The position numbers were made by a program, and so were the translations under genes. Below are positions 3,026 through 56,871 of a stretch of DNA of 64,000 nt, in pieces; position 1 is the stretch's first letter; the number at the start of each line of letters is the position of its first letter. Source of the DNA: Sphingorhabdus sp. GTDB taxonomy: Bacteria > Pseudomonadota > Alphaproteobacteria > Sphingomonadales > Sphingomonadaceae. The stretch is from NCBI RefSeq assembly GCF_044239045.1, contig NZ_JBIICD010000008.1:8311-72310 (forward strand), written 5' to 3'. The notes under the pieces are model-generated. The model saw only the letters and a program-made list of their open reading frames with translations, searched no databases and had not been told where the DNA came from.

Positions 3026-4080
3026 AGACCGAAACCCTCCGGCTGCGGCCAACCTTGGGCATAAGCGGCCAATGTCTTGAATAAGGCCCCCATGGCGTCA
3101 GGCTCTACCAGCCGTTGACGCGCCGCGTTTATGTCTGCAGCTCTGTCGGGGTTGGACGCAGCCAAATGTTGCGCACGCTGCTCAATGCCCAGACCCAAAA
3201 GCCATGCACCTTGGTCACTTGGTCCAGCCGTCAAAAGACCACTATTTTTCGCGCAGGTCGCCAATTCAAAAAAGTCGACATGCGCCGTCAAATCCAGCTG
3301 TCCCGGATTGGTAAACGGGTCGGCATAATTGTGGCTCTGGACCGCTTGTAACGTGTTGCCCAACGCAGGCTGTGTATAGCCATAGTCGATGACCAACATC
3401 ACCCCGCCCTGCTTTACCAGCCGTGCCGAAAGCTGCTGCATGATCGACGATGCATCAGGACAGATTTCATAAATACTGCCCATGGCGGCCGTGCGAAAAT
3501 GTGCGGGAATGAGGTCATCAGCCGAGGACGCGCCGGGCACAGCCGCAAAACCCGATTCACTATCCCGCACAACGACCCGTTCCCGCCAGCCAGATTGTGT
3601 CGCAACCATCTGTCGAACCGGTAAGGCGTCGAAAAACTCGTTTGCCACAATGCACAAAGGCGCATCGGTCGGAAGACTATCCAGATTGTCATGGAATGTC
3701 GCGTCTGGCACTGCCTGCAACTGCTTGGCGCGTAATGCCGGGCTGTTTTCCACGAAATGGACCGATGGTTCCCATCCAAAACGCTTCATTGTTCTGAGCG
3801 CGTCTGCTGCCAAAGTTCCCCGGCCAGGGCCAAGCTCCACATAATGGCAAGTGGCCGGACGATGGCGTAACCAGATATCGCTCAACCAAATGCCCACCAT
3901 CTCGCCAAACATCTGGCTGATTTCTGGCGCAGTGATGAAATCACCTTCTGCGCCCAGCGGGTCAGCGCGACCATAATATGCGGTGTTGGCCACACGCATA
4001 TATTCGGCAACGCTGATGGGTCCTGATGCCTCTATCTGCTGCGCTAGACGGACTGCAACTTGCGCGCTGTCAGGTGACAC
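3022..4080 (-). CDS. SAM-dependent methyltransferase, MidA/NDUFAF7 family
   Basis: DFITAPEISQMFGE, ELGPGRG, ANEFFDALP, DLTAHVDF motifs; GTG start at 4080 overlaps the lgt end (track start 4149 looks too long). Confidence 0.9.
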   Translation of the reverse strand: MSPDSAQVAVRLAQQIEASGPISVAEYMRVANTAYYGRADPLGAEGDFITAPEISQMFGEMVGIWLSDIWLRHRPATCHYVELGPGRGTLAADALRTMKRFGWEPSVHFVENSPALRAKQLQAVPDATFHDNLDSLPTDAPLCIVANEFFDALPVRQMVATQSGWRERVVVRDSESGFAAVPGASSADDLIPAHFRTAAMGSIYEICPDASSIMQQLSARLVKQGGVMLVIDYGYTQPALGNTLQAVQSHNYADPFTNPGQLDLTAHVDFFELATCAKNSGLLTAGPSDQGAWLLGLGIEQRAQHLAASNPDRAADINAARQRLVEPDAMGALFKTLAAYAQGWPQPEGFGL

Positions 4081-4936
4081 TATTACTGCCGGACATGGCC
4101 TCGGCGCGCTGCTTGCGGGCACCTGCGGTGAATACCAAGAACAGTCCAACCAATATCATCGGAGCGGTGAGCCACTGCCCCATGGTCAGGCCGCTTGTTT
4201 CCACCAGCCACTGCAACTGTAGGTCAGGTTCCCTGACAAACTCGATGGAAAAACGGGCTGTGCCATAAATGATTGCCGCCATACCTGTCAGGAGCCCGGG
4301 CCGATACCGCGCAGTGGTTTTCCAGAATAATGGCCACAATATTGCGGCCATCAACAGCCCTTCAAACACAGCTTCATACAGCTGGCTTGGATGGCGCGGC
4401 AAATCACCGCCATTGGGAAACACAATCGCCCATGGCACGTCGGTGACGCGGCCCCAAAGTTCATCATTCACAAAGTTCGCCAGGCGGACGAGAAATATCC
4501 CAAAAGGCACGACGCAGGCAACATAATCGCAGACCCGCAAGAAAGAGAGCTTATGCTTGCGCGCCAAAAGCCAGATCGAAAATATGATACCAATCGCGCC
4601 GCCATGGAATGACATCCCGCCTTCCCAAAGTTTGAAGATGTCCATAGGATTCTGCAAAATGGAGGGTTGGTAGAATAAAATATACCCAATCCGTCCACCC
4701 AAAATAATACCTAAGGTGGTATATAAGATTATGTCATCGGCTTGCTCGCGTGACATGGGCGCACCGGGACGTGCGAGCAATTTCAACAACATCCAATAGC
4801 CGAGCAAGATGCCGACCAAATATCCAAGCGAATACCAACGGATTTGGAAGAAGCCCAAATCGAGCGCAACGGGACCTACGCCAAGGCCCGTAAACTGAAT
4901 AAAACCGGCAGCGGTTGAAATAATCTCGAATGACAC
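4070..4936 (-). CDS. lgt: Prolipoprotein diacylglyceryl transferase
   Basis: IRWYSL, GGRIGY, GGMSFHGG, RLANF, RHPSQLYE signature motifs. Confidence 0.97.
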   Translation of the reverse strand: MSFEIISTAAGFIQFTGLGVGPVALDLGFFQIRWYSLGYLVGILLGYWMLLKLLARPGAPMSREQADDIILYTTLGIILGGRIGYILFYQPSILQNPMDIFKLWEGGMSFHGGAIGIIFSIWLLARKHKLSFLRVCDYVACVVPFGIFLVRLANFVNDELWGRVTDVPWAIVFPNGGDLPRHPSQLYEAVFEGLLMAAILWPLFWKTTARYRPGLLTGMAAIIYGTARFSIEFVREPDLQLQWLVETSGLTMGQWLTAPMILVGLFLVFTAGARKQRAEAMSGSNSVT

Positions 4937-5011: not shown

Positions 5012-6709
5012 ATGCCGTCGCAGTTGGACCTTGCAATCGATGCCACCATTAACCGGCTCATGGCCGATGATGGACCCTTAGCCGTTACCTATGCCGAGAA
5101 AAACGGTGTTCAAATGCCCGTTTTCGCCAAAGCACCGGGTAACATGGCCGACTATTTCGCATTTTTCTGTGCGACCCATGCGGACAAGGAATTTTTGGTC
5201 GATGGCGATATCCGCTTAAGTTTCGCAGAAACCTATGGTGCGGCGCGCGCTTTGGCTGGTGGTCTTGTAGAAGGCTACAAGCTGCAAAAGGGTGAGCGCG
5301 TCGGCATTGCGGCGCGTAATTCCGCCAATTGGATCGTTGCCTATATGGCGATTGTGATGGCCGGCGGCGTTGCAACGTTGCTCAATGGCTGGTGGCAAGG
5401 TGGAGAATTGGCAGAAGGCATTCGCATGGTTGGCTGCCGCTTTGTTCTCGCCGATGAACAGCGTGCCGCGCGGATGGCTGGACAAGATATTGGTGGGTGT
5501 GAACTGCTCATCATCAACCATGATTCCAAACCCTTGGATGGCTTATCGGTGATGACCGCTAAGGGTGGCGGCGCGGCGACAGCGCTGCCAACCATCGATC
5601 CACTCGATAACGCGACGATTTTATACACCTCTGGATCAACCGGACAGTCGAAGGGTGCGGTGTCAGACCATCGCGCTGTCGTCCAAGGCGCAATGAGCTA
5701 TGTCGGTCAAACGCTTGTCTTTTTTGAGCTTATGTCCGCCAGTGGCCAGTCGATGCCGGCCCAGCCTTCAGCGCTCGTCAATGTGCCCTTGTTCCACGTT
5801 ACTGCGTCGATACCTTTGGTGCTGCAAAGCTTCGCCATTGGCCGCAAGCTCGTTTTGATGCCCAAATGGGACGCAGAAGAAGCGATGCGGATTATCGAAA
5901 AAGAACGCATCACATATTTCGTGGGCGTTCCGTTGATGAGCATTGAGCTTGCAACGCACCCGGCCCGACACAAATATGATTTAACAAGCTGCACCGCATT
6001 TGCCGCCGGCGGCGCGCCACGCCCTGTCGAGCATGTCAAAAAAATCCGCAAGGAAATGAGCTGGGGTTATCCATTATTGGGCTACGGCCTTACTGAAACC
6101 AACGGCGTTGGCTGCGGCAATTTCACCGACAATTATCTAGAAAAGCCAACCAGCACGGGCCCTGCGACCAAGCCACTTGTCGAGGTCCAAATGCTGGACG
6201 ATGATGGCAATGTATTGCCGCAGGGTGAACGCGGCGAAGTGGGCATTCGGACGATTGCCAATTTCAATGGCTATTGGAATAACGAAGATGCCACGCGTGA
6301 TGCCTTCACCGCCGATGGATTTTTCCGGACCGGCGACATCGGCTATCTCGACGAAGATGGCTATTTGTTTATCGTCGATCGAAAGAAAGATATCATCATC
6401 CGGGGCGGCGAGAATATCAGTTGCCCAGAGGTCGAAGCTGCGGCCTATGAACATGACTCGATAGTCGAATTGTCTGTCTTTGGTATCGCTGATGACAAAT
6501 ATGGTGAGGTTCCGGGCATTGTCTATCAGACAAAGGAAGGCGTCACGCTAACCGCGGATGAATTGAAAGCGTTTTTGGCACCCCGTCTTGCACCATACAA
6601 AATTCCTGTACATTTCTGGCAAGTGGCCGAACCACTTCCCCGTCTGGGGACACAGAAAATCGACCGGGTGACGCTGCGACGCGAATATAATGCCAAGATA
6701 TCTGCTTAA
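5012..6709 (+). CDS. Long-chain fatty acyl-CoA synthetase (class I adenylate-forming enzyme)
   Basis: YTSGSTGQSKG P-loop, GYGLTE, FRTGDIG, terminal GTQK. Confidence 0.9.
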   Translation: MPSQLDLAIDATINRLMADDGPLAVTYAEKNGVQMPVFAKAPGNMADYFAFFCATHADKEFLVDGDIRLSFAETYGAARALAGGLVEGYKLQKGERVGIAARNSANWIVAYMAIVMAGGVATLLNGWWQGGELAEGIRMVGCRFVLADEQRAARMAGQDIGGCELLIINHDSKPLDGLSVMTAKGGGAATALPTIDPLDNATILYTSGSTGQSKGAVSDHRAVVQGAMSYVGQTLVFFELMSASGQSMPAQPSALVNVPLFHVTASIPLVLQSFAIGRKLVLMPKWDAEEAMRIIEKERITYFVGVPLMSIELATHPARHKYDLTSCTAFAAGGAPRPVEHVKKIRKEMSWGYPLLGYGLTETNGVGCGNFTDNYLEKPTSTGPATKPLVEVQMLDDDGNVLPQGERGEVGIRTIANFNGYWNNEDATRDAFTADGFFRTGDIGYLDEDGYLFIVDRKKDIIIRGGENISCPEVEAAAYEHDSIVELSVFGIADDKYGEVPGIVYQTKEGVTLTADELKAFLAPRLAPYKIPVHFWQVAEPLPRLGTQKIDRVTLRREYNAKISA

Positions 6710-6743: not shown

Positions 6744-9506
6744 GTGATGGCATCAACAGTAGAACGGATATTCAAGCAGCGCGACATTATCGACCGGAGC
6801 GTGCTGGCCGAGAAAATTGACGGCATTGTTCACGCATGTGGAGCCGAAGCACGCCGTCCACACGTCGTAGAGATATTGCAAACGGCACTGGCCAACGGTC
6901 GGACCGAAATTCAACGACGCCTCAATGCTGCGCCGTCGCAAGGCTATCGTGCGTCTGCGGAGCAAGCATTTCTTGTCGATCAAATCGTCCGGCTTATCTA
7001 CGATTATGTCACTGTTCATGCTTATCCCGCTGCCAATCGCTCGGCATCCGAAAGGATCGCGGTTCTGGCTGTCGGTGGATATGGTCGCGGGGAAATGGCG
7101 CCACATAGCGACGTGGATATTGGCTTTGTAACGCCCTTCAAGCGCAGCTCTTGGACCGAGCAGGTCGTCGAAGCGATCCTCTATTTGCTCTGGGATCTTG
7201 GGTTGAAGGTTGGTCAATCAAGCAGATCCCTCGATGAAACGGTAAAGATGGCGCAAGAGGATTTAACCATTCGTACCGCGTTGCTGGAAAGCAGGTTTGT
7301 GTGGGGCGATCGCGGCGTTTACGAAGAGGTTTCACTACGTTTTTGGAATGAAGTTGTCGCAAACACGGCATCAGACTTTGTCCGCCTAAAAATGATTGAA
7401 CGCGACGATCGGCATCGACGCATGGGTGACAGCCGATATGTGGTCGAACCCAATATCAAAGATGGCAAAGGCGGGCTTCGCGACCTCCACACACTCTACT
7501 GGATTGGGAAATATATCCATAAAGTGTCAGCCGTGTCCGAACTTGTCGATGTTGGCCTGCTCACAATCGATGAATATAATCGTTTTAGAAAAGCCGAGAA
7601 TTTCTTGTGGTCCGTGCGTTGTCATATGCACAATATCACCGGACGCGGGGAAGACCGTCTGACATTTGATCTGCAACGCGAAGTAGCAGAGCTTATGCAA
7701 TTTGCCGATCGCCCCGGCCGCTCAGCGGTTGAAAGGTTCATGCATTTTTACTTTTTGAACGCAAAAACGGTTGGCGATGTGACGGGACTTTTCCTGGCGC
7801 ATTTGGATGAAGCTATGGCCCAAAAAGGCCGTCGATTTTTACCCAGCTTTGGCCGGAAGCCAAGAAAGCTCAACGGCTTTCAATTGGATCGTGGTCGCCT
7901 TGCGTTACCAGATGATGGCTTTTTTGCGCAAGACCCCGTGCGCTTGCTCGAGATATTTCATTTGGCGGACCTGCATGAATTGGAAATTCACCCGCTGGCG
8001 ATGCGTGCCGCCCAAAGGGATGCCCGGCTGATCGACAAAGTATTGCGGCGCGACCCCAGAGCCAACGCCCTTTTCCTCGAAATATTAACATCGCCGCGCG
8101 ACCCGGAAACGGTGTTGCGCTGGATGAATGAATCTACCGTTTTTGGGCGATTTATACCGGATTTCCGTCGCGTCGTAGCGCAGATGCAGTTCGACATGTA
8201 CCACCATTACACGGTCGATGAACATTCGATCCGCGCCATTGGTTTGCTGGCCGATATCAACCGCGGAAAGCTCAAAAAAGATCACCCATTATCTACCGCG
8301 ATGGTGCAACAGATTGTCAGCAAGCGGGTATTGTTTGTGGCAACCTTGCTCCATGATATTGCGAAGGGGCGTGGCGGCGACCATAGTGTGTTGGGCGCGG
8401 AGATTGCCGAAACCTTATGCCCGCGGCTCGGCCTTTCACCAGCCGAAACGGAAACCGTTGCGTGGCTCGTCCGTTATCATTTGTTGATGTCGGCCACTGC
8501 GTTCAAGCGGGACTTGGCAGATTTCAAGACCATCCTGGATTTTGCCCAGGCGGTACAGTCGCCCGAGCGGTTGAAGCTGCTATTGGTCTTAACCGTCGTT
8601 GATATCCGCGCGGTTGGACCAGGCGTTTGGAACAGTTGGAAACGACAGCTTTTGTCGGACCTGTTTGAAGCGACAGAAGAAGTGCTGCGCTTGGGACACA
8701 AACAACGCGGCCGGGATGAGAGGATCACCTCGAAAAAGGCGCAGCTGGAGTCCACGTTGCAACTACCGCCCGATAGCTTCGCGGCTTTTGCCAAAACGCT
8801 TCCTGACGCTTATTGGATCGCCGAACCAGACGACATCATTGAACGCAACGCCCAGCATCTTCTTTCCAATGCCGGTACAGAACTTGCCATTGATGCCTGT
8901 TTCTATCCTGATCGTGGGGCAACGCTCGTCACGGTTTTTGCGGCCGACCATCCAGGATTATTTTACCGCATAGCGGGCGCCATTCACCTAGCGGGCGGCA
9001 ATATTATCGATGCGCGGATTCACACCAGCAGTGACGGCATGGCGGTCGACAATTTCCTGATCCAGGACCCGCTGGGTCGTCCGTTCCAGGAGCAAAGTCA
9101 GTTAAACCGCCTCAAGCGCAACATTGAAGAGGCGCTCACCAATCGCGCACGTTTGATGACACAACTGGACGCAAAGCCAAAAGCACTGCGCCGGGCTGAC
9201 GCCTTTAAAATCGCGCCATCGGTGTTGATTGATAATCAAGCATCTAACAGGTTTACAGTGATTGAAGTGAATGCGCTGGATCGCCCCGCCTTGCTTAACA
9301 ATTTGGCGCTCGCGCTGTTTGAATCCAAAGTCACATTGCACAGTGCGCATATCGCCACTTACGGGGAACGCGCCGTCGACACATTTTATGTGACGGATTT
9401 ATTCGGCGGCAAAATCGAAAACAAAAACAAGTTAAAGGCACTTGAAGCGAGGCTTTTGGAATCCGCCGCAGTAAAGGCGCGAGCAAAGCCAAAGGTCGCA
9501 GCCTAA
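6744..9506 (+). CDS. glnD: [Protein-PII] uridylyltransferase / uridylyl-removing enzyme
   Basis: AVGGYGRGE..P.SDVD nucleotidyltransferase, EPNIKDGKGGLRD, HHYTVDEH, HD domain (LLHDIAKG), two C-terminal ACT domains. Confidence 0.97.
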   Translation: MMASTVERIFKQRDIIDRSVLAEKIDGIVHACGAEARRPHVVEILQTALANGRTEIQRRLNAAPSQGYRASAEQAFLVDQIVRLIYDYVTVHAYPAANRSASERIAVLAVGGYGRGEMAPHSDVDIGFVTPFKRSSWTEQVVEAILYLLWDLGLKVGQSSRSLDETVKMAQEDLTIRTALLESRFVWGDRGVYEEVSLRFWNEVVANTASDFVRLKMIERDDRHRRMGDSRYVVEPNIKDGKGGLRDLHTLYWIGKYIHKVSAVSELVDVGLLTIDEYNRFRKAENFLWSVRCHMHNITGRGEDRLTFDLQREVAELMQFADRPGRSAVERFMHFYFLNAKTVGDVTGLFLAHLDEAMAQKGRRFLPSFGRKPRKLNGFQLDRGRLALPDDGFFAQDPVRLLEIFHLADLHELEIHPLAMRAAQRDARLIDKVLRRDPRANALFLEILTSPRDPETVLRWMNESTVFGRFIPDFRRVVAQMQFDMYHHYTVDEHSIRAIGLLADINRGKLKKDHPLSTAMVQQIVSKRVLFVATLLHDIAKGRGGDHSVLGAEIAETLCPRLGLSPAETETVAWLVRYHLLMSATAFKRDLADFKTILDFAQAVQSPERLKLLLVLTVVDIRAVGPGVWNSWKRQLLSDLFEATEEVLRLGHKQRGRDERITSKKAQLESTLQLPPDSFAAFAKTLPDAYWIAEPDDIIERNAQHLLSNAGTELAIDACFYPDRGATLVTVFAADHPGLFYRIAGAIHLAGGNIIDARIHTSSDGMAVDNFLIQDPLGRPFQEQSQLNRLKRNIEEALTNRARLMTQLDAKPKALRRADAFKIAPSVLIDNQASNRFTVIEVNALDRPALLNNLALALFESKVTLHSAHIATYGERAVDTFYVTDLFGGKIENKNKLKALEARLLESAAVKARAKPKVAA

Positions 9507-31288: not shown

Positions 31289-32854
31289 CTATGCAAGCGC
31301 CTCGGCGATGAGCTTGCGCGAGTTTGCAATGCCATAGAGCGCGATGAAGCTGCCCATGCGCGGCCCCGCGCTGGAACCCAAAAGCGTTTCATACAAGGCC
31401 TTGAACCAGTCGCGCAGATTTTCAAATCCACCCTCTTTGCCGATTTCATAGACGATATTCTGAATATCCTCGGCGCTGGCATCGGCGGGCAATTCGGCCA
31501 GCCGCGCATCCAACGTCTGCAACGCGGCAATCTCGATGCCCTCGGGCTTACGCTTGTGCAAGGTTGGCGCGACGAAATCACGGTTATAGGCCAAAGCAAT
31601 CGGGATAAGCTCGGCCAGTTCCGGCGCGTTTTCGGGCGAGACATTATCGGCATAATTGCCCAAATAAGCCCAAACCTGATCCTCGGTGGCGCCTGCCCCC
31701 ATCACGCCGACAAGGTTCAATAACAGGCCGAATGTCACTGGCGGCTGCCCGCTGGGTACTTGGCCATTGTGGACATGGTGCACTGGGTTCCCCAACCGCT
31801 TTTCAATCGGTTGCTCATGCCATTGCGCACGGAATTGGAAATATTCGTCCACGGCCTTTGGCACCACGCCCAAATGCAGTTGCTTGGCGCTTTTGGGTTC
31901 GCGGAAGGCATAAAAGGCAACGCTGTTTTCCGTGCCATATTTCAGCCAATCCTCGAGTGCGAGGCCATTGCCCTTGGACTTGGAAATCTTCTCGCCTTTT
32001 TCGTCGAGGAACATTTCGTAAATCAGGCTTTCGGGCGGACGGCCGCCAAGCACACGCGCGATTTTACCCGATTGCACGCCGCTGTCGGTCAAATCCTTGC
32101 CATACATTTCATAATCGACGCCCAACGCGACCCAGCGCATTGCCCAGTCGACCTTCCATTGCAGCTTTGACTTGCCGCCCAAGACCGATTGCGTGACCAT
32201 GTCGCCATCATCCTCGAACCGGACAAGGCCGGCTTCGGCATCAACAACCTCAACCGGCACCTGCAGCACGACGCCGCTCTTCTCGCTGATCGGCAATATC
32301 GGCGAATAGGTCGCGGCGCGTTCCTTGCGCAACGTGGGCAGCATGATGTCCAATATGCCCTGATAATGTCGCAATACATTTTTCAGGGCATCGTCAAACA
32401 CGCCGCTTTCATATTGCGACGCAGATGAGATAAATTCATATTCAAAGCCAAACTGATCCAGAAAATCGCGCAGCATCGCATTGTTATGCGCGGCAAAGCT
32501 TTCAAATTTTTCAAACGGATCGGGAATGCGCGACAAGGGCTTGCCCAAATGTTCGGCGAGCATTTTTTGGTTCGGCACATTGTCCGGCACCTTGCGCAGG
32601 CCATCCATATCGTCCGAAAATTCAATCAGCCGCGTCGGCGCGTCGGACAAGGTCCGGAACGCATTGCGCACCATCGTCGTGCGCAGCACTTCGTTAAAGG
32701 TGCCGATATGCGGCAGACCCGATGGGCCATAGCCACATTCGAAGATAATCGCCTGATTATCGGCCTTGCCATTGGGATAGCGTTTCAGCAAACGCCGCGC
32801 CTCTTCATAAGGCCAGGCTTTTGATGCCAATGCTATGTCGCGGTGGTCAGTCAC
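31289..32854 (-). CDS. lysS: Lysine--tRNA ligase, class I
   Basis: AWPYEEA, GYGPSGLPHIGTF (HIGH), KISKSKGN (KMSKS), GPRMGSF; GTG start 32854 preferred over 33025. Confidence 0.96.
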   Translation of the reverse strand: MTDHRDIALASKAWPYEEARRLLKRYPNGKADNQAIIFECGYGPSGLPHIGTFNEVLRTTMVRNAFRTLSDAPTRLIEFSDDMDGLRKVPDNVPNQKMLAEHLGKPLSRIPDPFEKFESFAAHNNAMLRDFLDQFGFEYEFISSASQYESGVFDDALKNVLRHYQGILDIMLPTLRKERAATYSPILPISEKSGVVLQVPVEVVDAEAGLVRFEDDGDMVTQSVLGGKSKLQWKVDWAMRWVALGVDYEMYGKDLTDSGVQSGKIARVLGGRPPESLIYEMFLDEKGEKISKSKGNGLALEDWLKYGTENSVAFYAFREPKSAKQLHLGVVPKAVDEYFQFRAQWHEQPIEKRLGNPVHHVHNGQVPSGQPPVTFGLLLNLVGVMGAGATEDQVWAYLGNYADNVSPENAPELAELIPIALAYNRDFVAPTLHKRKPEGIEIAALQTLDARLAELPADASAEDIQNIVYEIGKEGGFENLRDWFKALYETLLGSSAGPRMGSFIALYGIANSRKLIAEALA

Positions 32855-32891
32855 GTGTTGCTCTTTCGTTCCAAATAACCCAACAGGGCTT

Positions 32892-35627
32892 ATGGGAACT
32901 CCACTAGCCTTTCCTGCGCTCCATGCAAGCCATGCCGGTATTTGGATGGGCAGCAACGATGGACAAGTGCAATCCATTGGCAAGGGCGAAGCGGCGGGCC
33001 GCGCTGCCGAAACGCCGATGGTCATGCTGAATGCGCCTTTGGTCGCACAACGGCTTGGCTATCCCGATTTGTCGGGGCTCGACCTTCTGGAGCTTTATGC
33101 CTTTGTCTACCCCGCGCGCTTTGCGGTGCCAACGCCCAAGGGATTGGCAAAGACTTTGGGCTTGCCCGCGCCCGCGACGGATCAAGATGTCCCGACTTTT
33201 TTGCTGCACGCCGCGCGCCATTTGCTGTCGGTGCTGGGTGAAGCGGATTGGGCCGAGCGCGAAGGCGCTTGGGATTCGGCGCAAGCCTTGATGCGCCTGC
33301 GCTGGCCATGGGCCAATCTGGTCTTGGCGCAGCTTAAAAAGCCCGAGCGGCCCGAGCGCTGGCTGTTTAGCCGCCTGCCCGAATGGGAGGAGGCCCCGCC
33401 CCGCACCCCGCCGCGCGTGGTCACATTGCAGGCCGATGCCGTGCAAGAACGCTTGGCGTCTTTGGTCGGTGGCTCTGCGGAAACACGGCAGGGCCAGCGC
33501 GATTTTGCGCAGGCGGCGGCAGAAATCTTTTCGCCGCGCAAGGGCAAAAGCGAGCCACATATGGTTTTGGCGGAGGCGGGCACGGGCATTGGCAAGACGC
33601 TCGGCTATCTAGCCCCTGCCAGCCTGTGGGCGACGGCGGCCGATGGCACGGTGTGGATTTCGACCTTCACCAAGGCGCTGCAACGGCAATTGGTGCGCGA
33701 GGCGAAGCGGATTTACCCCGACCATGAAACATTCAAGTCCAAGGTTGTGGTGCGTAAGGGCCGCGAAAATTATCTGTGCCTGTTAAATCTGGAGGATGCT
33801 TTGCAAGGCGGCTTTGCCGGACGCGCGGCGATCCTTGCGCATCTGGTCGCGCGCTGGGCGGCCTATTCGCATGATGGCGATATGATCGGCGGCGATTTGC
33901 CCGGTTGGCTACCGACCTTATTCCGGCGCAATGGCTCGACCGCTTTGACCGACCGGCGCGGCGAATGCATTTATGCCGGATGCCCGCATTATAAAAAATG
34001 TTTCATTGAACGCGCGGCGCGTTCATCGGTGCAGGCCGAGATCGTCATTGCCAATCACGCGTTGATGATGGTCAACGCGGCGCGCGGGCGCGATGAGCAA
34101 AACCGACCCAGCCGGATTATTTTTGACGAAGGTCATCATCTATTTGACGCGGCAGATTCGATGTTTGCTGCCGCGCTGACAGGGCAAGAAACCATTGAGC
34201 TGCGCCGCTGGGTCATTGGTCCCGAGGGCAAGGCACGCGGCAGGCGTCGCGGCTTGTCGGCGCGGCTGGCCGATGTTGCGTCTTATGACGAAGAAGGCGG
34301 CCTCGCCATTGAAATGGCGCGCGTCGCCGCGGAGGCTTTGCCCGGTGATGGATGGCTGGCACGCTTGGCCGAAGGGACGCCATCGGGACCAATTGAGCAT
34401 TTGCTTGCCGCCGTTCGGGCGATGGTGTTCGCCCGCGACGAAAGCAATGCGACCGAAAGCGGCTACGGTCTGGAAACCGAGCTTGCCGATCCTGATCCCA
34501 ATGTCATTGACGCCGCCGCCGATGCCGCAATCGCGCTGGAGGCGCTGGCAAGACCGCTGACGGTGCTGGGGCAGCGGTTGGAGGCGATGATAGCCGACCC
34601 GCCCGATTGGCTCGATGGCAGCGCCCGCGCGCGCGTGGAGGGCGCAACCGCAAGCCTAAGCTGGCGCATCGACACATTGCGCGCATGGATATCGATGTTG
34701 GCGCGCGCCGTTGGCCCCGTTGACCCTGAATATGTCGACTGGCTGGCGATTGACCGGTTTGAGGGGCGTGAGATGGACATTGGCATGCACCGCCGCTGGC
34801 TCGACCCGATGAAGCCCGTGGCAGAAATCGTCCTAAAACCCAGCCATGGCGTGCTCGCCACCTCCGCAACCTTGCGTAGCGGCGGCGACTGGCAAAATGC
34901 CGAGGCGCGGACAGGCGCCTTGCATCTCGATAAGCCCGCGACACATTTTTTGGCGGTCAGCCCGTTCGACTATAAAGCGCAGGCCGAGGTGCTGATTGTC
35001 ACAGATATCAAAAAGGGTGACCCTGCCGCCTTGGCGGGGGCTTATGCGTCCTTGATCACGGCATCGGGCGGCGGCGCCTTGGGCCTGTTCACCGCGATAC
35101 GGCGCTTGCGATCCACTTATGCGCGTATCGCCGACCGCTTGGCGCGGGATGGCCTGCCTTTATTTGCACAACATGTGGACCCCATTGATACCGGAACATT
35201 GGTCGACATATTCCGCGATGACCCGCATGCAAGCTTGCTCGGCACCGATGCACTGCGCGACGGGGTGGACGTGCCGGGCCATTCGCTGCGGCTTGTCATC
35301 ATGGAGCAAATTCCCTGGCCCCGCCCCGACATATTGCACCGCGCGCGGCGGTTGAAACATGGCGGCATGGACTATGATGATCGCATCATCCGCGCCAAAA
35401 TGGCGCAGGCCTTTGGCCGCCTCATCCGCAGCGCTGGCGACAAAGGCCATTTTGTGCTGTTGTCATCCGCCGTGCCAAGCCGGCTTTTGTCCACATTTCC
35501 GCCGGGGACACCCATTCGCCGGGTGACGCTGGAGGAGGCGGTGCATTCGGTAAAATCAGGTCTTTCGTCTGACACAAATTTGCGGCAGGACACCATAGAC
35601 ACGTTGGAAGAGAGCAACCCGATTTGA
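32892..35627 (+). CDS. DinG-family ATP-dependent DNA helicase
   Basis: EAGTGIGKT, RKGRENYLC, Fe-S Cys cluster (CIYAGCPHYKKC), DEGH, DGVDVPG, QAFGRLIR; start at ATG 32892. Confidence 0.92.
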   Translation: MGTPLAFPALHASHAGIWMGSNDGQVQSIGKGEAAGRAAETPMVMLNAPLVAQRLGYPDLSGLDLLELYAFVYPARFAVPTPKGLAKTLGLPAPATDQDVPTFLLHAARHLLSVLGEADWAEREGAWDSAQALMRLRWPWANLVLAQLKKPERPERWLFSRLPEWEEAPPRTPPRVVTLQADAVQERLASLVGGSAETRQGQRDFAQAAAEIFSPRKGKSEPHMVLAEAGTGIGKTLGYLAPASLWATAADGTVWISTFTKALQRQLVREAKRIYPDHETFKSKVVVRKGRENYLCLLNLEDALQGGFAGRAAILAHLVARWAAYSHDGDMIGGDLPGWLPTLFRRNGSTALTDRRGECIYAGCPHYKKCFIERAARSSVQAEIVIANHALMMVNAARGRDEQNRPSRIIFDEGHHLFDAADSMFAAALTGQETIELRRWVIGPEGKARGRRRGLSARLADVASYDEEGGLAIEMARVAAEALPGDGWLARLAEGTPSGPIEHLLAAVRAMVFARDESNATESGYGLETELADPDPNVIDAAADAAIALEALARPLTVLGQRLEAMIADPPDWLDGSARARVEGATASLSWRIDTLRAWISMLARAVGPVDPEYVDWLAIDRFEGREMDIGMHRRWLDPMKPVAEIVLKPSHGVLATSATLRSGGDWQNAEARTGALHLDKPATHFLAVSPFDYKAQAEVLIVTDIKKGDPAALAGAYASLITASGGGALGLFTAIRRLRSTYARIADRLARDGLPLFAQHVDPIDTGTLVDIFRDDPHASLLGTDALRDGVDVPGHSLRLVIMEQIPWPRPDILHRARRLKHGGMDYDDRIIRAKMAQAFGRLIRSAGDKGHFVLLSSAVPSRLLSTFPPGTPIRRVTLEEAVHSVKSGLSSDTNLRQDTIDTLEESNPI

Positions 35628-40236: not shown

Positions 40237-40923
40237 TTATCGGGCAGCAAGCACATCGTCTGCAACAAAGGCGTTGTGCTTGCGCTCATAGCCAAATTGG
40301 CTGGTGGGGCCATGGCCGGGGATGAAGGTCACATCATCCCCCAATGGCCAAAGCTTCGTCGTGATCGCATTAATCAGGTCGGCATGATTACCACGCGGGA
40401 AATCGGTGCGACCGATCGATCCTTGAAACAACACATCCCCGACAATCGCCAGACGGCTGGGTTGATGATGGAAAATGACATGTCCGGGCGTATGGCCGGG
40501 GCAGTGAATGACATCGAGCGTCAGATTGCCAACGGTCACGGTATCTCCGTCGACCAGCCAGCGGTCCGGCTCAAAACTATGGGCTTCCATGCCATAGCGC
40601 GCGCCGTCATTGTCGAGCTTCTCAATCCAGAAACGGTCGTCCTCGTGCGGGCCTTCAATCTTCAGCCCCAATTCTTGCGCCAGCATCCCTGCTTGCCCGC
40701 AATGGTCCAGATGGCCGTGCGTCACCAATAATTTTTCCAGCTCAACGCCCGTTTGCGCCACCGCGGCTTTCAATTTGTCGAGATCACCGCCGGGGTCAAC
40801 CAAAGCGCCCTTGTTCGTTTCGGTGCACCAAAACAGCGTGCAATTCTGCTGCAACGGGGTGACGGGAATGATCGCGGCCTTCAATGGCGGCGCCTTTGTG
40901 GGTGTGGATGTGACGTTAGACAT
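40237..40923 (-). CDS. MBL-fold metallo-hydrolase (glyoxalase II-like)
   Basis: THGHLDH, HCPGHTPGH, GDVLF, PGHG. Confidence 0.92.
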   Translation of the reverse strand: MSNVTSTPTKAPPLKAAIIPVTPLQQNCTLFWCTETNKGALVDPGGDLDKLKAAVAQTGVELEKLLVTHGHLDHCGQAGMLAQELGLKIEGPHEDDRFWIEKLDNDGARYGMEAHSFEPDRWLVDGDTVTVGNLTLDVIHCPGHTPGHVIFHHQPSRLAIVGDVLFQGSIGRTDFPRGNHADLINAITTKLWPLGDDVTFIPGHGPTSQFGYERKHNAFVADDVLAAR

Positions 40924-40963
40924 AGATATTCATGTGCCGCACTCGCGCGGCGGAGGCAAGTGT

Positions 40964-41599
40964 TCACAGCCGCCGGCCTGCCCAAACCACCCTGCCGATG
41001 ATCGCAACGGTGGCGCCGTCCACATCTGGCCAACCGGGATAGGCCGGATTATCCGACAGCACGGACAATCGCCCGCCGGGTCCGCTGGCCAGCCGTTTGA
41101 CCATCAACGCATCATCCAGCCGAATGACATGAATGCCGTCACGCAACGGGCCTGTCGCAGCGCGGTTGTCGACCATGATATCATCCCCATGGTTCAATGT
41201 CGGCGACATGGAATCGCCATCCACCTGAATCAACGACAGCATGGCTGGATCCAGCCCCTGTTTACGCAACCATTTTTCGTCAAAGCCGATTTTCCCCGCG
41301 AGCGTTTCGCGGTCCGGAATTGCGCCGGGGCCCGCTGATGCGCCAACCGAAAGCTTGGGAATAAGCCGGATGCCCGTTCGGGTCGCGCCCGCCTCCGGCC
41401 CACCCAGCACGCTTTCATCCACGCCAAAATATCGTGCCAATATCCCACGCTCGGTCTCTGGCAGTTTTTTGGGTGATCCGCGTTTGATAAATTGTTGAAT
41501 ATAAGTCGGATTGCGTCCGACCAGTTTCGACAGACCAGCAAAATCTTCTGCATTTTCCGCAATCAAGCGCTCCAAAGCAGCCCTTGGGTCTTCCCCCAT
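40964..41599 (-). CDS. CI/LexA-like repressor: HTH plus S24 peptidase
   Basis: HTH (LSKLVGRNPTYIQQFIKRGSP), Ala-Gly site (ASAGPG), catalytic Ser (GDSM) and Lys (VKRL), IIGRVVW. Confidence 0.88.
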   Translation of the reverse strand: MGEDPRAALERLIAENAEDFAGLSKLVGRNPTYIQQFIKRGSPKKLPETERGILARYFGVDESVLGGPEAGATRTGIRLIPKLSVGASAGPGAIPDRETLAGKIGFDEKWLRKQGLDPAMLSLIQVDGDSMSPTLNHGDDIMVDNRAATGPLRDGIHVIRLDDALMVKRLASGPGGRLSVLSDNPAYPGWPDVDGATVAIIGRVVWAGRRL

Positions 41600-41618
41600 G
41601 TTGTTCCCTCCGGTTCGG

Positions 41619-41652
41619 TTGGAAATTTCCTAGACTTGTAGGATTTATCCTA
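41619..41652. promoter_or_regulatory. Two 14-bp palindromic operator-like sites, T(A/T)GGA-N4-TCCTA
   Basis: TTGGAAATTTCCTA (41619-41632) and TAGGATTTATCCTA (41639-41652), 20 bp centre to centre. Confidence 0.7.
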
Positions 41653-41660
41653 TCACTTTT

Positions 41661-41675
41661 GTTCTATATTTGTTC
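41661..41675. promoter_or_regulatory. Alphaproteobacterial LexA (SOS) box
   Basis: GTTC-TATATTT-GTTC exactly fits GTTC-N7-GTTC. Confidence 0.7.
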
Positions 41676-41722
41676 TTACCGATTCGGGCAAGCCAATCCG
41701 GGTCGACCGTGGAGGAGACATC

Positions 41723-41929
41723 ATGCATATCACGCGCCTAATTGAGAGGTTTCTCCGGGAACAGGACCTGCCACCGACCAAATTCGGGCGCTTGGCCGCG
41801 GGCGATCCGCGCCTCGTACTCGACATCCGGATGGGGCGAGAAATCCGACCCGAAATGGAGGTAAAACTACGCCATTTCATGTCCCATTATGGCCAAACCG
41901 CCCAAACGCAGGACCGGAACGCGATATGA
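41723..41929 (+). CDS. Small Cro-like HTH protein
   Basis: 68 aa, PTKFGRLAAGDPRLVLDIRMGR; GGAGGAG SD; divergent from the S24 repressor. Confidence 0.75.
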   Translation: MHITRLIERFLREQDLPPTKFGRLAAGDPRLVLDIRMGREIRPEMEVKLRHFMSHYGQTAQTQDRNAI

Positions 41930-42231
41930 GCAGGCGGACACAATCGGGCACCCTCATAAACGCCTTGCGCGCAATCATCCCCACTGCCGACATAAGCATA
42001 TTGCAGGAACGGCCATGGCACAGCCTCACCTTTTCTGGGACGCAAATAGGCCTGTCGGTGCAATATTCGGATGGACCATGGCAAAGCGACGTGGCGGCGC
42101 TGTCGCAGCTTTTGTCCGAATATGAATTTGACTTGGCCCACCAGATCGTCGCCGACATTGGCGTAACGCAAGCGGTTATCGGCAAAGGCACCCAATGTCT
42201 GATCATAGATGCGTTGTTGCTCGATAGCTGA
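41926..42231 (+). CDS. Hypothetical protein coupled to the Cro-like gene
   Basis: ATGA overlap; ERPWHSLTFSG and L.EYEF.L...IVAD motifs recalled from sphingomonad hypotheticals. Confidence 0.65.
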   Translation: MSRRTQSGTLINALRAIIPTADISILQERPWHSLTFSGTQIGLSVQYSDGPWQSDVAALSQLLSEYEFDLAHQIVADIGVTQAVIGKGTQCLIIDALLLDS

Positions 42232-42279
42232 CACAAGGCAAAACTTGTGCACCGTCGCCATCGACCGTAAACAATGTGC

Positions 42280-43452
42280 ATGACCACACAAACCGCACCG
42301 ACCTTGCCCCGCATCGCACCCGAATCGATTGTCCCGCGCCTGCAAAGCTATTGGGACGCGCTCAATATGTGGGTGCAGACCAATTATCTGGAACTTGGCA
42401 TTGCCGTGGTGGCGGCGATCATCGTGTTCGTTGCGCTGAGTTGGTTGAAAAGAATCGCCGCAAACATCGCGCGTGCCAGCGAGCACCGCGCACATTTGAA
42501 ATCCATCATCGCCCGAACCTTAGCCCGCACAAGCAAGTTTTTCCGTGTCATGGTGTCGATTGAATTGGTCAATCAGATTGCCAATGCGCCAGTGGCGCTG
42601 ACCCAGACCGTCGACATATTGTTCACCATCGCGATCGTCATTCAAATCGCCATCTGGCTGCGTGAAATCATCTTGGGCTTGATTGAGCGGCGCGCAGGCG
42701 AAGGCGTGCATGAACATGACACGCTGCAAAGCGCGATGGTGCTCATTCGCCTGCTCGTCAGCTTCGTGTTATTTGCCATTGCCGCCATTGTCGTACTCGA
42801 CAATCTGGGCGTTAATGTCACAGGCCTCGTCGCCGGGCTTGGCGTTGGCGGCATTGCCATTGGCCTTGCCGCACAGGGCATTTTTTCCGACCTGTTTGCC
42901 GCCATCTCGATCATTTTCGACAAGCCATTCCGGCGCGGCGACACGGTGTCCTATGACAATACCGTTGCGCGGGTTGAAGTCATTGGCATGAAAAGCACAA
43001 GACTGCGCGCGCTGACGGGGGAAGAGAAAATTATCTCCAACAGCAAATTGCTGGAAAAGGAAATCACCAACAACACGCTGACCTTGTATCGGCGGGTTAC
43101 TTTCGTACTCACCCTTGTATACCAAACGCCCCCTGCCCTTGCCCGCCGTGTGCCCGACATTCTGCGCCAAGCAGTTGAGGCGAACAATGCGCAATTCATT
43201 CGTGCTGGTTTCAATAATTTTGCCCCAAGCTCGCTCGATTTTCATCTGGTGTTCGACATTGAAAGCGATGATGTCGAAGAGATGTTTCAGGCCCGCCACA
43301 ATATTGGCATCGCGATTATCGATAGCTTTGCCCGCGAAGGAATCTCTTTTGCCTATCCGACGCAGACGACGTTCACCGCCGCGCCAGATGGCACGATGGT
43401 GATGCCTTATGCCACGCCGTCCCAAACAGCTGAGGCACCTTCGAAAAGCTGA
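42280..43452 (+). CDS. MscS-family mechanosensitive channel
   Basis: GLGVGGIAIGLAAQ..FSDLFA, DKPFRRGD, IGMKSTRLR..TGE. Confidence 0.92.
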   Translation: MTTQTAPTLPRIAPESIVPRLQSYWDALNMWVQTNYLELGIAVVAAIIVFVALSWLKRIAANIARASEHRAHLKSIIARTLARTSKFFRVMVSIELVNQIANAPVALTQTVDILFTIAIVIQIAIWLREIILGLIERRAGEGVHEHDTLQSAMVLIRLLVSFVLFAIAAIVVLDNLGVNVTGLVAGLGVGGIAIGLAAQGIFSDLFAAISIIFDKPFRRGDTVSYDNTVARVEVIGMKSTRLRALTGEEKIISNSKLLEKEITNNTLTLYRRVTFVLTLVYQTPPALARRVPDILRQAVEANNAQFIRAGFNNFAPSSLDFHLVFDIESDDVEEMFQARHNIGIAIIDSFAREGISFAYPTQTTFTAAPDGTMVMPYATPSQTAEAPSKS

Positions 43453-54918: not shown

Positions 54919-56871
54919 GTGATGATGAACGACGAACAAGAACCCAAAAGCAACCCGATGCTCCGCAACTTGGCCATTTGGTCCGGGATCATTGTGGCGC
55001 TTTTGCTTGTAGCCTCGATATTCGGTGGTTCGTCAGAATCTGCGAAGGGCATCAGCTATTCATCGTTCCGCGACAAGGTTGAGGCAGGCGAAGTCAAATC
55101 TGTTGCGATTGCGCCTGAGCGTATCAGTGGCAAGTTGCAAAATGACGAAGCATTCGTCACCGTCCCCATTCCAGGCGATAATAGTCTATATCCTCTGCTT
55201 GATGAAAAAGGCGTCGATGTTCAAGGCAAGGCCGAAGAACAGCCGAGCCTCATTCTGATCCTGTTATATCAAGCGTTGCCGTTCTTGCTCATCCTTGGCA
55301 TCGCATTCTTCGTTTTGCGGCAAATGCAAAAAGGCGGCGGCGCAGGTGGAGCCATGGGCTTTGGCAAGTCGAAGGCAAAATTGCTGACTGAAAAACATGG
55401 CAAGGTAACGTTCGATGATGTCGCCGGCATTGACGAGGCCCGCGAAGAGCTTCAGGAAATCGTCGAATTTTTGAAAGACCCACAAAAATTCAGCCGCCTT
55501 GGTGGTAAAATCCCCAAGGGCGCTTTGCTTGTTGGTTCGCCGGGTACCGGCAAGACTTTGCTCGCACGCGCAATTGCTGGCGAGGCTGGCGTACCGTTCT
55601 TCTCGATCTCTGGGTCTGACTTTGTCGAAATGTTTGTGGGTGTTGGTGCAAGCCGCGTGCGCGACATGTTTGAGCAAGCAAAGAAAAACGCACCTTGCAT
55701 CGTGTTCATCGATGAAATCGACGCGGTGGGCCGCAGCCGTGGCGCTGGCCTTGGTAATCAAAATGACGAACGCGAACAGACATTGAACCAGCTTTTGGTC
55801 GAAATGGACGGATTTGAAGCCAATGAAGGCATCATCATCGTTGCTGCAACCAACCGCCCCGATGTCCTTGATCCAGCATTACTGCGCCCCGGTCGCTTTG
55901 ACCGTCAGGTTGTTGTGCCGCGCCCGGATATTGATGGGCGCGTCAAGATTCTCGCCGTGCACATGAAGAAAGTGCCTTTAGCACACGATGTCGATGGCAG
56001 AGTCATCGCACGCGGAACGCCCGGTTTCTCGGGTGCTGACCTTGCCAACCTTGTGAACGAAGCCGCATTGCTTGCCGCACGTCGTGGCAAACGACTAGTC
56101 GCTATGCAAGAATTCGAGGATGCCAAAGATAAGGTGATGATGGGCACCGAACGTAAGTCGATGGTCATGACCGAAGATGAAAAGAAAATGACGGCCTATC
56201 ATGAGGCCGGCCATGCAATCGTGTCGATCTATGAAGCCGCATCTGACCCGATCCACAAGGCAACCATCATTCCCCGTGGCCGAGCCTTGGGTATGGTCAT
56301 GCGCCTACCAGAGAGGGATAATTACAGCTATCATCGCGATAAAATGCACGCCAACCTCTCCGTATCCATGGGCGGACGCGTGGCGGAAGAATTGATCTTC
56401 GGCTATGACAAGGTCAGTTCAGGCGCATCCAGCGATATCCAATATGCAACCAGCTTAGCGCGCGACATGGTCACCCAATGGGGCATGTCGGATGCGATGG
56501 GGCCGCTACAATATGAAGAGCGTCAAGAAGGATATCTTGGCTACGGCATGTCACAGCGATCAGCTATGTCGGATGAAACAGCACAAAAGATTGATGCCGA
56601 AATCCGCAAGCTGGTTGAAGGCGGGCATAAACGAGCGACCGAGTTGCTGACGACGCATAACGAACAATTACACCTTCTTGCCAACGCACTTCTGGAATTC
56701 GAAACGCTTTCGGGCGACGAAATCAACCAGCTTTTGGAATCAGGTAAATTCGAACGTGACGACGGCAAGGTAGTTAAGCCCTCGTCCATTCCAACGGTAG
56801 GTACAGCCATCCCAAAAGCGGGACGCAGCAAGTCTACGCCAGTCGAAGGCGCAGCGCCACAAGGCGCTTAG
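54919..56871 (+). CDS. ftsH: ATP-dependent zinc metalloprotease FtsH
   Basis: Two TMs, [28 protein letters not shown]. Confidence 0.98.

Follow-up and report, generated by a model that had tools for sequence, protein, structure and literature searches.

A phage-type S24 repressor module with a candidate SOS box, kept in the chromosomes of Sphingomonadaceae and probably responsive to DNA damage

The stretch of DNA analysed here, called the window, comprises 64 kb of the chromosome of a freshwater Sphingorhabdus. It contains a module of three genes in which a repressor of the predicted helix-turn-helix (HTH)-S24 type is divergent, across an intergenic gap of 123 bp, from two small genes that encode proteins of 68 and 101 residues, designated p68 and p101. 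We propose, with a probability of about 0.6, that this module is a phage immunity region that has been kept by the host and inherited chromosomally across the Sphingomonadaceae, and that it is probably doubly locked, by its own repressor and by LexA, and triggered by DNA damage. The original prediction, made from the letters of the window, had described a domesticated phage-type CI/Cro module in a core genome. The three open reading frames were found where it had placed them, including the ATGA overlap in which the start of p101 lies within the stop of p68 and by which p101 is translationally coupled to p68, and domestication is borne out by conservation throughout the family, by selection (dN/dS 0.06-0.39) and by phage counterparts that carry the same motif.

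A Peptidase_S24 domain (PF00717) occupies residues 87-205 of the repressor (E 7.8e-15), and residues 22-210 match the family phrog_4, annotated as 'transcriptional repressor' (E 5e-35). Annotated CI-like repressors of the phages RcapNL, phiO18P and MP29 share 34-37% identity with the protein. Its N-terminal region matches no HTH family of Pfam and only the part from residue 22 onwards is covered by phrog_4; the motif GRN.AY.QQFI.RG.P of this region is also present in annotated phage repressors. The residues predicted to bring about self-cleavage are complete, with Ala89-Gly90 (in ASAGPG) as the cleavage site and Ser130 (in GDSM) and Lys168 (in VKRL) as the catalytic dyad. They are invariant in 79-80 orthologues. 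A scan of one genome per species yielded 80 loci whose repressor relatives are 55-96% identical to that of the window. The Ala-Gly site and the Ser/Lys dyad are also retained in most of the 150 nearest relatives, which are representatives of 50% clusters. The repressor can thus be called autocleavage-competent by its residues, as had been claimed, and the inducibility by DNA damage that was claimed along with it is, in view of the invariance of these residues, probable.

The gap contains two 14-bp palindromes, which had been noted before and are kept in relatives, and a direct repeat GTTC-N7-GTTC, which is absent from the original prediction and was found in the present analysis (Table 1). GTTC-N7-GTTC is the SOS (LexA) box of Caulobacter and the alphaproteobacteria (PMC9578287; PMC12700426). 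The centres of the palindromes, the candidate operators O1 (TTGGAAATTTCCTA) and O2 (TAGGATTTATCCTA), are 20 bp apart; O1 lies 7 nt from the Shine-Dalgarno sequence of the repressor gene, and the putative SOS box (GTTCTATATTTGTTC) begins 9 bp past O2. About 50 bp separate the ribosome-binding site of the repressor from the SOS box and, judging from this geometry, must hold the repressor promoter together with at least the upstream elements of the p68 promoter. Since O1 is so close to the Shine-Dalgarno sequence and the interval to the SOS box is so short, the repressor promoter must overlap O1/O2, and the repressor is therefore probably autoregulated. Counted in the window alone, neither motif is significant: the exact form AGGA-N4-TCCT occurs once against 0.3 expected, and the number of GTTC-N7-GTTC sites is not significant either. 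The weight of the gap motifs comes from the relatives. The only other GTTC-N7-GTTC of the window, at positions 55774-55788 inside the ftsH coding region, is probably a chance occurrence.

Table 1. Genes and sequence elements of the module (positions in the window; binding and function of the elements are predicted)
Feature	Position	Strand	Basis
S24 (CI/LexA-type) repressor, 211 aa, predicted HTH and self-cleaving	40964-41599	-	Pfam PF00717, phrog_4, conserved residues, dN/dS
Shine-Dalgarno sequence of the repressor gene, GGAGGG	41606-41611	-	read from sequence
Candidate operator O1, TTGGAAATTTCCTA	41619-41632	.	14-bp palindrome; GGA-N4-TCC conserved at this place in related loci
Candidate operator O2, TAGGATTTATCCTA	41639-41652	.	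14-bp palindrome; motif also in phage immunity gaps
LexA-type SOS box, GTTC-N7-GTTC direct repeat, GTTCTATATTTGTTC	41661-41675	+	motif match and conservation; LexA binding predicted
Invariant element, GATTCGGGCAAG	41681-41692	+	invariant in Sphingorhabdus-type loci
Shine-Dalgarno sequence of p68, GGAGGAG	41711-41717	+	read from sequence; conserved in alignments
p68, 68 aa, predicted XRE/Cro-type HTH, gene in the Cro position	41723-41929	+	AlphaFold2 model, PDB fold matches
p101, 101 aa, acidic, alpha-beta-beta-alpha-beta-beta (predicted)	41926-42231	+	AlphaFold2 model

In 77 related loci the gaps could be compared, and the totals for each motif were obtained from 872 kb of locus sequence, about 1% of which is gap. 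Two or three GGA-N4-TCC palindromes are present in 64 of the 77 gaps, and 61 of the 69 adjacent pairs are spaced by 20 bp. The sequence AGGA-N4-TCCT is confined almost entirely to the gap, where 107 of its 110 sites are found. GTTC-N7-GTTC is present in 69 of the 77 gaps, 55 times on the p68 strand and 14 times inverted, and 70 of its 79 sites lie inside the gap. The gaps that lack it belong mostly to a Novosphingobium/Sphingobium-like clade, in which a third palindrome stands in its place. For the palindromes as candidate operators this comparative evidence is decisive. In Sphingorhabdus the core of the gap is nearly invariant, as opposed to a dS of 0.4-0.9 in the flanking genes, and it is better conserved than the third codon positions of these genes. 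Between the SOS box and the ribosome-binding site of p68 lies GATTCGGGCAAG, whose core, GATTCG or GAGTCG, is found throughout the family in constant orientation, including loci with an inverted SOS box; it could be a site for p68 or the region of the transcription start. A hairpin in the 5' untranslated region, formed by GATTCGGG and CCGGGTC at the GATTCGGGCAAG region, was considered and rejected (z-score -0.27, no covariation). The operators are also flanked by an 18-nt direct repeat, TTGTTC..CCG.TTCGG (78% identical; 41601-41618 and 41670-41687). Its left copy overlaps the ribosome-binding site of the repressor and is not conserved in other clades, and the repeat is probably due to chance.

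All three genes are under purifying selection, with dN/dS values of 0.06 (repressor), 0.11 (p68) and 0.39 (p101); the value of the neighbouring gene for a metallo-beta-lactamase (MBL) hydrolase is 0.025. The closest relatives of the locus are found in Sphingorhabdus metagenome-assembled genomes and in S. wooponensis, and the sequencing runs that contain it are lake metagenomes. The three genes, the operators and part of the synteny are kept in Sphingorhabdus, Allosphingosinicella, Sphingosinicella, Sphingobium, Novosphingobium and Sphingomonas. Wherever the sequenced locus extends far enough, a divergent p68 homologue is present, followed by a p101 homologue. Some of the latter are too diverged to be detected by tblastn and were recognised as an overlapping reading frame with the motifs RxW.S.TF.G and VADI, which p101 homologues share. 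In Sphingorhabdus the gene order is fixed as plsX, rpmF, MAPEG, MBL, repressor, p68-p101 and MscS, and polysaccharide genes occupy 0, about 0.9 or about 3.9 kb between p101 and MscS. In the window MscS follows p101 directly (42232-42273); in a relative (locus L039, 1545-5375) the insert encodes an O-antigen-ligase-like protein, a glycosyltransferase and an Ala/Pro-rich protein of 318 residues. Loci of Allosphingosinicella, Sphingosinicella, Sphingobium and Novosphingobium have a different flank next to the repressor and keep part of the polysaccharide/MscS side. The three genes are also present on an 853-kb replicon of Sphingomonas parapaucimobilis, all of them annotated 'hypothetical', and, at 45-47% repressor identity, in further lineages with other housekeeping flanks.

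The claim that there is no prophage around the module was confirmed. Within about 15 kb on either side, that is, among the genes scanned and in the immediate flanks, no phage gene was found and all genes are housekeeping genes. They include those for lysyl-tRNA synthetase, a helicase, IHF-alpha, fabH, plsX, rpmF, a MAPEG protein and the MBL hydrolase, and those for MscS, a MaoC dehydratase, a thiolase, a polyhydroxybutyrate depolymerase, PtsP, TilS and FtsH. The GC content of the window is flat at about 55%, without compositional anomaly, and the neighbourhood contains no tRNA. Freshwater metatranscriptome contigs of related strains (90-95% identity) cover positions 40466-42623, from the MBL gene through the repressor, the gap, p68 and p101 to the start of MscS; their depth over the module is similar to that over the neighbouring genes and may contain DNA carry-over. 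The calls for lysyl-tRNA synthetase (- strand) and the 930-residue helicase (+ strand) overlap by about 190 nt (32835-33025), so that one of the two starts is probably placed too far upstream.

Phage counterparts of the module were obtained by scanning IMG/VR with the p68 family, which yielded 35 viral contigs. In four of them (L102, L111, L121 and L126) an S24 repressor, 28-33% identical to that of the window, is divergent from a p68-like gene, and the gaps carry sites of the type TAGGA-N4-TCCTA. The same arrangement and motif are present on a circular 46.6-kb Bradyrhizobium element (L128), flanked by recombination and replication genes; the element is annotated as a plasmid and its gene content is phage-like. 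In the Octadecabacter virus DB2 a 68-residue 'DNA binding protein' of the p68 family is encoded at the early divergent junction. These arrangements represent a genuine type of alphaproteobacterial phage immunity region with p68 in the position of Cro. Some phages have p68-like genes without p101. In three further viral contigs (L093, 1-700; L104, 250-1060; L106, 7790-10240) a p68-like and a p101-like gene form a pair with no adjacent S24 repressor, just upstream of genes for a Mu-Gam-like protein, an HNH endonuclease and a small terminase, which indicates that p68 and p101 also travel together inside phages.

Prophages abut the module in some distant relatives. In contigs L092, L094, L095, L096 and L099 (about 1-1100 or 3500-4630) a block of repressor (53-57% identical) and p68 shows 77-82% nucleotide conservation between contigs. 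Immediately beyond the stop codon of p68 come three GGCCAAAAAT repeats and prophage late regions, with tail fibre and endolysin genes, that vary between contigs. In L100 and L103 (about 7900-8560) a prophage end is followed by GGCCAAAAAT repeats, a p68 altered at its 5' end, p101 and host polysaccharide genes. None of the 80 loci, each representing a species, contains the phage marker genes of these prophages that were tested, or the GGCCAAAAAT repeats. Given a module conserved at 77-82% next to prophages that vary, the favoured, though not settled, interpretation is that p68/p101 serves as an integration hot spot in that lineage, rather than that the module is the prophages' own immunity region. 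With the original prediction it had been considered what would speak against it, namely a strain-specific trio flanked by prophage remnants in relatives. Of this, the flanking was found, in the form of intact prophages in these distant relatives; the prophages differ from contig to contig, however, the module stays conserved, and the 80 loci are free of these phage genes.

Searches of Pfam, PHROGs, NCBIfam, PADLOC and the sequences of the PDB returned no match for p68, even by way of diverged relatives and profiles. The AlphaFold2 model of p68 consists of four helices, with a predicted local distance difference test score (pLDDT) of 78, and nearly all of its top 50 fold matches in the PDB (Foldseek) are HTH proteins of the Cro/C1 type, for example HipB, HigA, PA4674 and the 434 repressor, with template modelling scores of about 0.6 and root mean square deviations of about 2 Å over about 50 residues. 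On this basis p68 is predicted to be a small HTH protein of the XRE/Cro type. The possibility that it is a copy of the DNA-binding domain of the repressor was rejected (hhalign probability 0.7%). For p101 the same databases gave no match, apart from a faint match to the Pfam family Tail_completion_gp17 in one of nine relatives when diverged relatives and profiles were used. Its model (pLDDT 78) is an alpha-beta-beta-alpha-beta-beta domain without HTH, and its fold matches in the PDB and BFVD are weak and are to phage tail-terminator and tail-completion proteins (E 4e-3 and weaker). This likeness is a lead, not a finding. The p101 alignment has no stretch conserved enough to scan viral contigs with.

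According to the proposed model, dimers of the S24 repressor would be bound in unstressed cells to O1 and O2, 20 bp apart on the same face of the helix, where they would shut both the p68 promoter and the repressor's own leftward promoter. LexA, bound to the GTTC-N7-GTTC box right downstream of O2, would impose a second block on p68-p101, and the two proteins together would keep the rightward promoter closed. Upon DNA damage, RecA filaments would stimulate LexA and the S24 repressor to cleave themselves, the latter between Ala89 and Gly90 by means of Ser130 and Lys168. With both locks open, p68 and p101 would be made together from their overlapping frames. p68 most likely binds DNA, either at targets elsewhere or in the same gap, where it would keep the switch in the open state, and p101 would be its obligate partner or the effector. 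A more specific version, which we regard as doubtful, takes the S24 repressor and LexA as an AND gate that fires only after severe damage, and p68-p101 as a two-protein activator of a phage-derived cluster elsewhere, such as a gene transfer agent (GTA), a tailocin or a lysis module. In this version the pair, which in phages also travels together directly upstream of packaging genes, would be the previously unrecognised activator of an SOS-linked analogue, built from unrelated proteins, of the RogA-GafYZ system of Caulobacter crescentus.

Several observations weigh against the proposed switch. No usable transcription start sites were obtained from the metatranscriptome contigs over the locus. 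A consensus scan of the gap found no sigma-70-type promoter, so that the promoters are positioned by geometry. No other operator-like sites were found in the window, nor in the 6 kb around the module of related loci. The Foldseek E-values of p68 are weak (0.35 and above), as is expected of a chain of 68 residues, and neither family nor fold searches provided an informative relative of p101. Finally, the position of the p68/p101 pair before Gam, HNH and terminase genes in some phages means that p68 need not act like Cro.

The original prediction had gone further and suggested that the repressor might be the GTA master regulator, a relative of RogA that survived the loss of the GTA or was repurposed. 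RogA of C. crescentus is a protein of 213 residues that binds two GGAA-N4-TTCC inverted repeats at the gafYZ promoter and is reported to lack the residues essential for cleavage (PMC9632790); GafY is described as resembling DnaA domain IV and GafZ as sigma-like (PMC9632790, PMC11150451). If the S24 protein were the Sphingomonad counterpart of RogA, p68-p101 would be GafY/GafZ-like activators of a GTA or of another phage-derived late cluster elsewhere. Size and predicted architecture agree (211 and 213 residues, HTH plus S24-like domain), the half-site GGA/TCC is common to both sets of operators, p68-p101 are small, coupled and overlapping like gafY-gafZ, and in the three phage contigs the pair is located where late regulators often sit. 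GTA regions are moreover known in Sphingomonadales, for which reason a loss of the GTA is not established. Arguing against a RogA counterpart are the residues for cleavage, absent in RogA and invariant here, and the half-sites, which are 2 bp closer in GGA-N4-TCC than in GGAA-N4-TTCC. p68 has a predicted XRE fold and no match to DnaA_C, p101 is an alpha/beta protein without a sigma-like HTH, and the termini of GafY and GafZ, taken from published primers, are unlike those of p68 and p101. RogA itself was compared by its description and by its primer-derived termini (MATLSHGQIW... and ...IVWVSQ) rather than by its full sequence; none of the 150 nearest cluster representatives has such termini, which is a weak negative, and cluster look-ups for RogA returned no Caulobacter names. 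Caulobacter rogA is unlinked to gafYZ, and the 64-kb window contains no GTA gene. RogA-like control of a GTA is regarded as unlikely, and the claim of a GTA master regulator was not sustained. Catalytically dead S24 relatives were also considered as RogA and were rejected, being located on mobile elements of Sphingomonads.

About as unlikely as RogA-like control is an SOS-induced pair of the toxin-antitoxin or growth-arrest kind, with p68 as HTH antitoxin or autoregulator and p101 as an effector made upon damage, which might, for instance, inhibit division or replication or modulate RecA. Small SOS effectors, SidA and DidA, are known from Caulobacter. The overlapping small genes with the HTH gene in first place would suit such a pair, as would the faster evolution of p101 relative to p68 and the LexA-controlled toxin-antitoxin pairs of Caulobacter that PMC13384398 describes. 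HipB and HigA, the best fold matches of p68, are antitoxins, but these matches reflect the generic XRE fold. The acidic p101 matches no toxin family in Pfam, PADLOC, PHROGs, NCBIfam or the PDB, a separate dedicated repressor is atypical of type II toxin-antitoxin systems, and p68-like genes occur in phages without p101. The divergent layout would also allow the small product to aid the S24 repressor at its operators as a corepressor, in the way in which Acinetobacter UmuDAb is encoded divergently from the corepressor gene ddrR (PMC7273328, PMC11332147). Since neither p68 nor p101 has a sequence or family link to DdrR, and p68 is itself predicted to have a DNA-binding fold and takes the position of Cro in phages, this is very improbable. 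That the module is an inert remnant of a decayed prophage and no longer serves any function would fit its phage origin and the prophages that abut it in some distant relatives. It is hardly credible in the face of at least 77 loci in several genera with intact frames and the dN/dS values given above, of invariant catalytic residues and nearly invariant operators, and of the even base composition.

Two other kinds of S24 repressor were noticed. A paralogue of 207 residues, 42% identical to the repressor of the window, is encoded in L083-L086 (gene at 6001-6624) and has Ser replaced by Ala and Lys by Arg. It is widespread in Sphingobium, Novosphingobium and Sphingopyxis among genes for IS110, integrase, MobA and an HTH-M78 peptidase, and appears to be a catalytically dead repressor carried on mobile elements. 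In L090 (3006-4651) a repressor 49% identical to that of the window is paired with a 52-residue gene and a protein of 174 residues with LuxR/sigma70_r4 similarity and a hydrophobic C-terminal tail; the gap, of 240 bp, has no TAGGA/TCCTA motif.

Co-opted phage S24 repressors are emerging as parts of bacterial DNA-damage networks, as exemplified by FddR, AlpR, PrtR, RogA and UmuDAb. The module described here is a clean and very old case, the cis-logic of which can be read from comparative data, and it offers a testable model of how a switch of phage origin may be wired into the SOS response of its host. Attention is further drawn to p68 and p101 as uncharacterised protein families which alphaproteobacterial phages also possess. 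If it is true that p68-p101 control a GTA or another phage-derived cluster, SOS would be linked to gene transfer in an order in which the regulation of GTAs is unknown.

In the lambda and 434 CI-Cro regions a repressor gene and a small HTH gene are divergent and flank several evenly spaced operators, and in CTX-phi the phage repressor RstR and LexA act on one promoter. The module combines likenesses to both: a divergent repressor and small HTH gene, spaced operators and, as predicted, LexA and a phage-type repressor on one promoter. It differs in the absence of a prophage, in the combination of two operators with an SOS box (one clade has three operators) and in the additional coupled gene p101. 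In Pseudomonas aeruginosa AlpR-AlpA and PrtR-PrtN consist of a chromosomal self-cleaving CI-like S24 repressor that is divergent from a small positive regulator, and DNA damage frees AlpA or PrtN, which turn on phage-derived lysis or pyocin genes. There the outputs are known. The sequence of p68 has no relation to those of AlpA and PrtN, and in the module a LexA-type box shares the promoter. RogA-GafYZ has in common with the module an alphaproteobacterial HTH-S24-like repressor of about 212 residues, two GGA/TCC inverted repeats and two small coupled genes of phage ancestry; it is set apart by a repressor that is devoid of cleavage residues and unlinked to its targets, and by partners that resemble neither the XRE-like p68 nor the alpha/beta protein p101. 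UmuDAb-DdrR of Acinetobacter resembles the module as an S24 regulator with a small divergent partner in the DNA-damage response; UmuDAb is derived from UmuD and replaces LexA, and the corepressor DdrR has no sequence relation to p68 or p101 (PMC7273328, PMC11332147).

The literature search found no paper that describes this module. Among described systems FddR of Francisella comes closest: this phage-derived S24 repressor is retained throughout the genus, binds a palindrome within its promoter and regulates its own gene together with divergently transcribed ones, the whole forming a self-contained unit of the response to DNA damage (PMC13148647). Common to both would be the co-option of a phage S24 repressor together with divergent partner genes. 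The FddR operator is GTG-N11-CAC instead of GGA-N4-TCC, the partner genes and the host order differ, and in the window a LexA-type box stands beside the operators, so that the module is apparently under both controls. Particular to the present case are how old and how widespread the module is in the Sphingomonadaceae, the joint presence on one promoter of a LexA-type box and two evenly spaced, cooperative-looking candidate operators, the replacement of this box by a third operator in one clade, and two uncharacterised proteins that are shared with phages.

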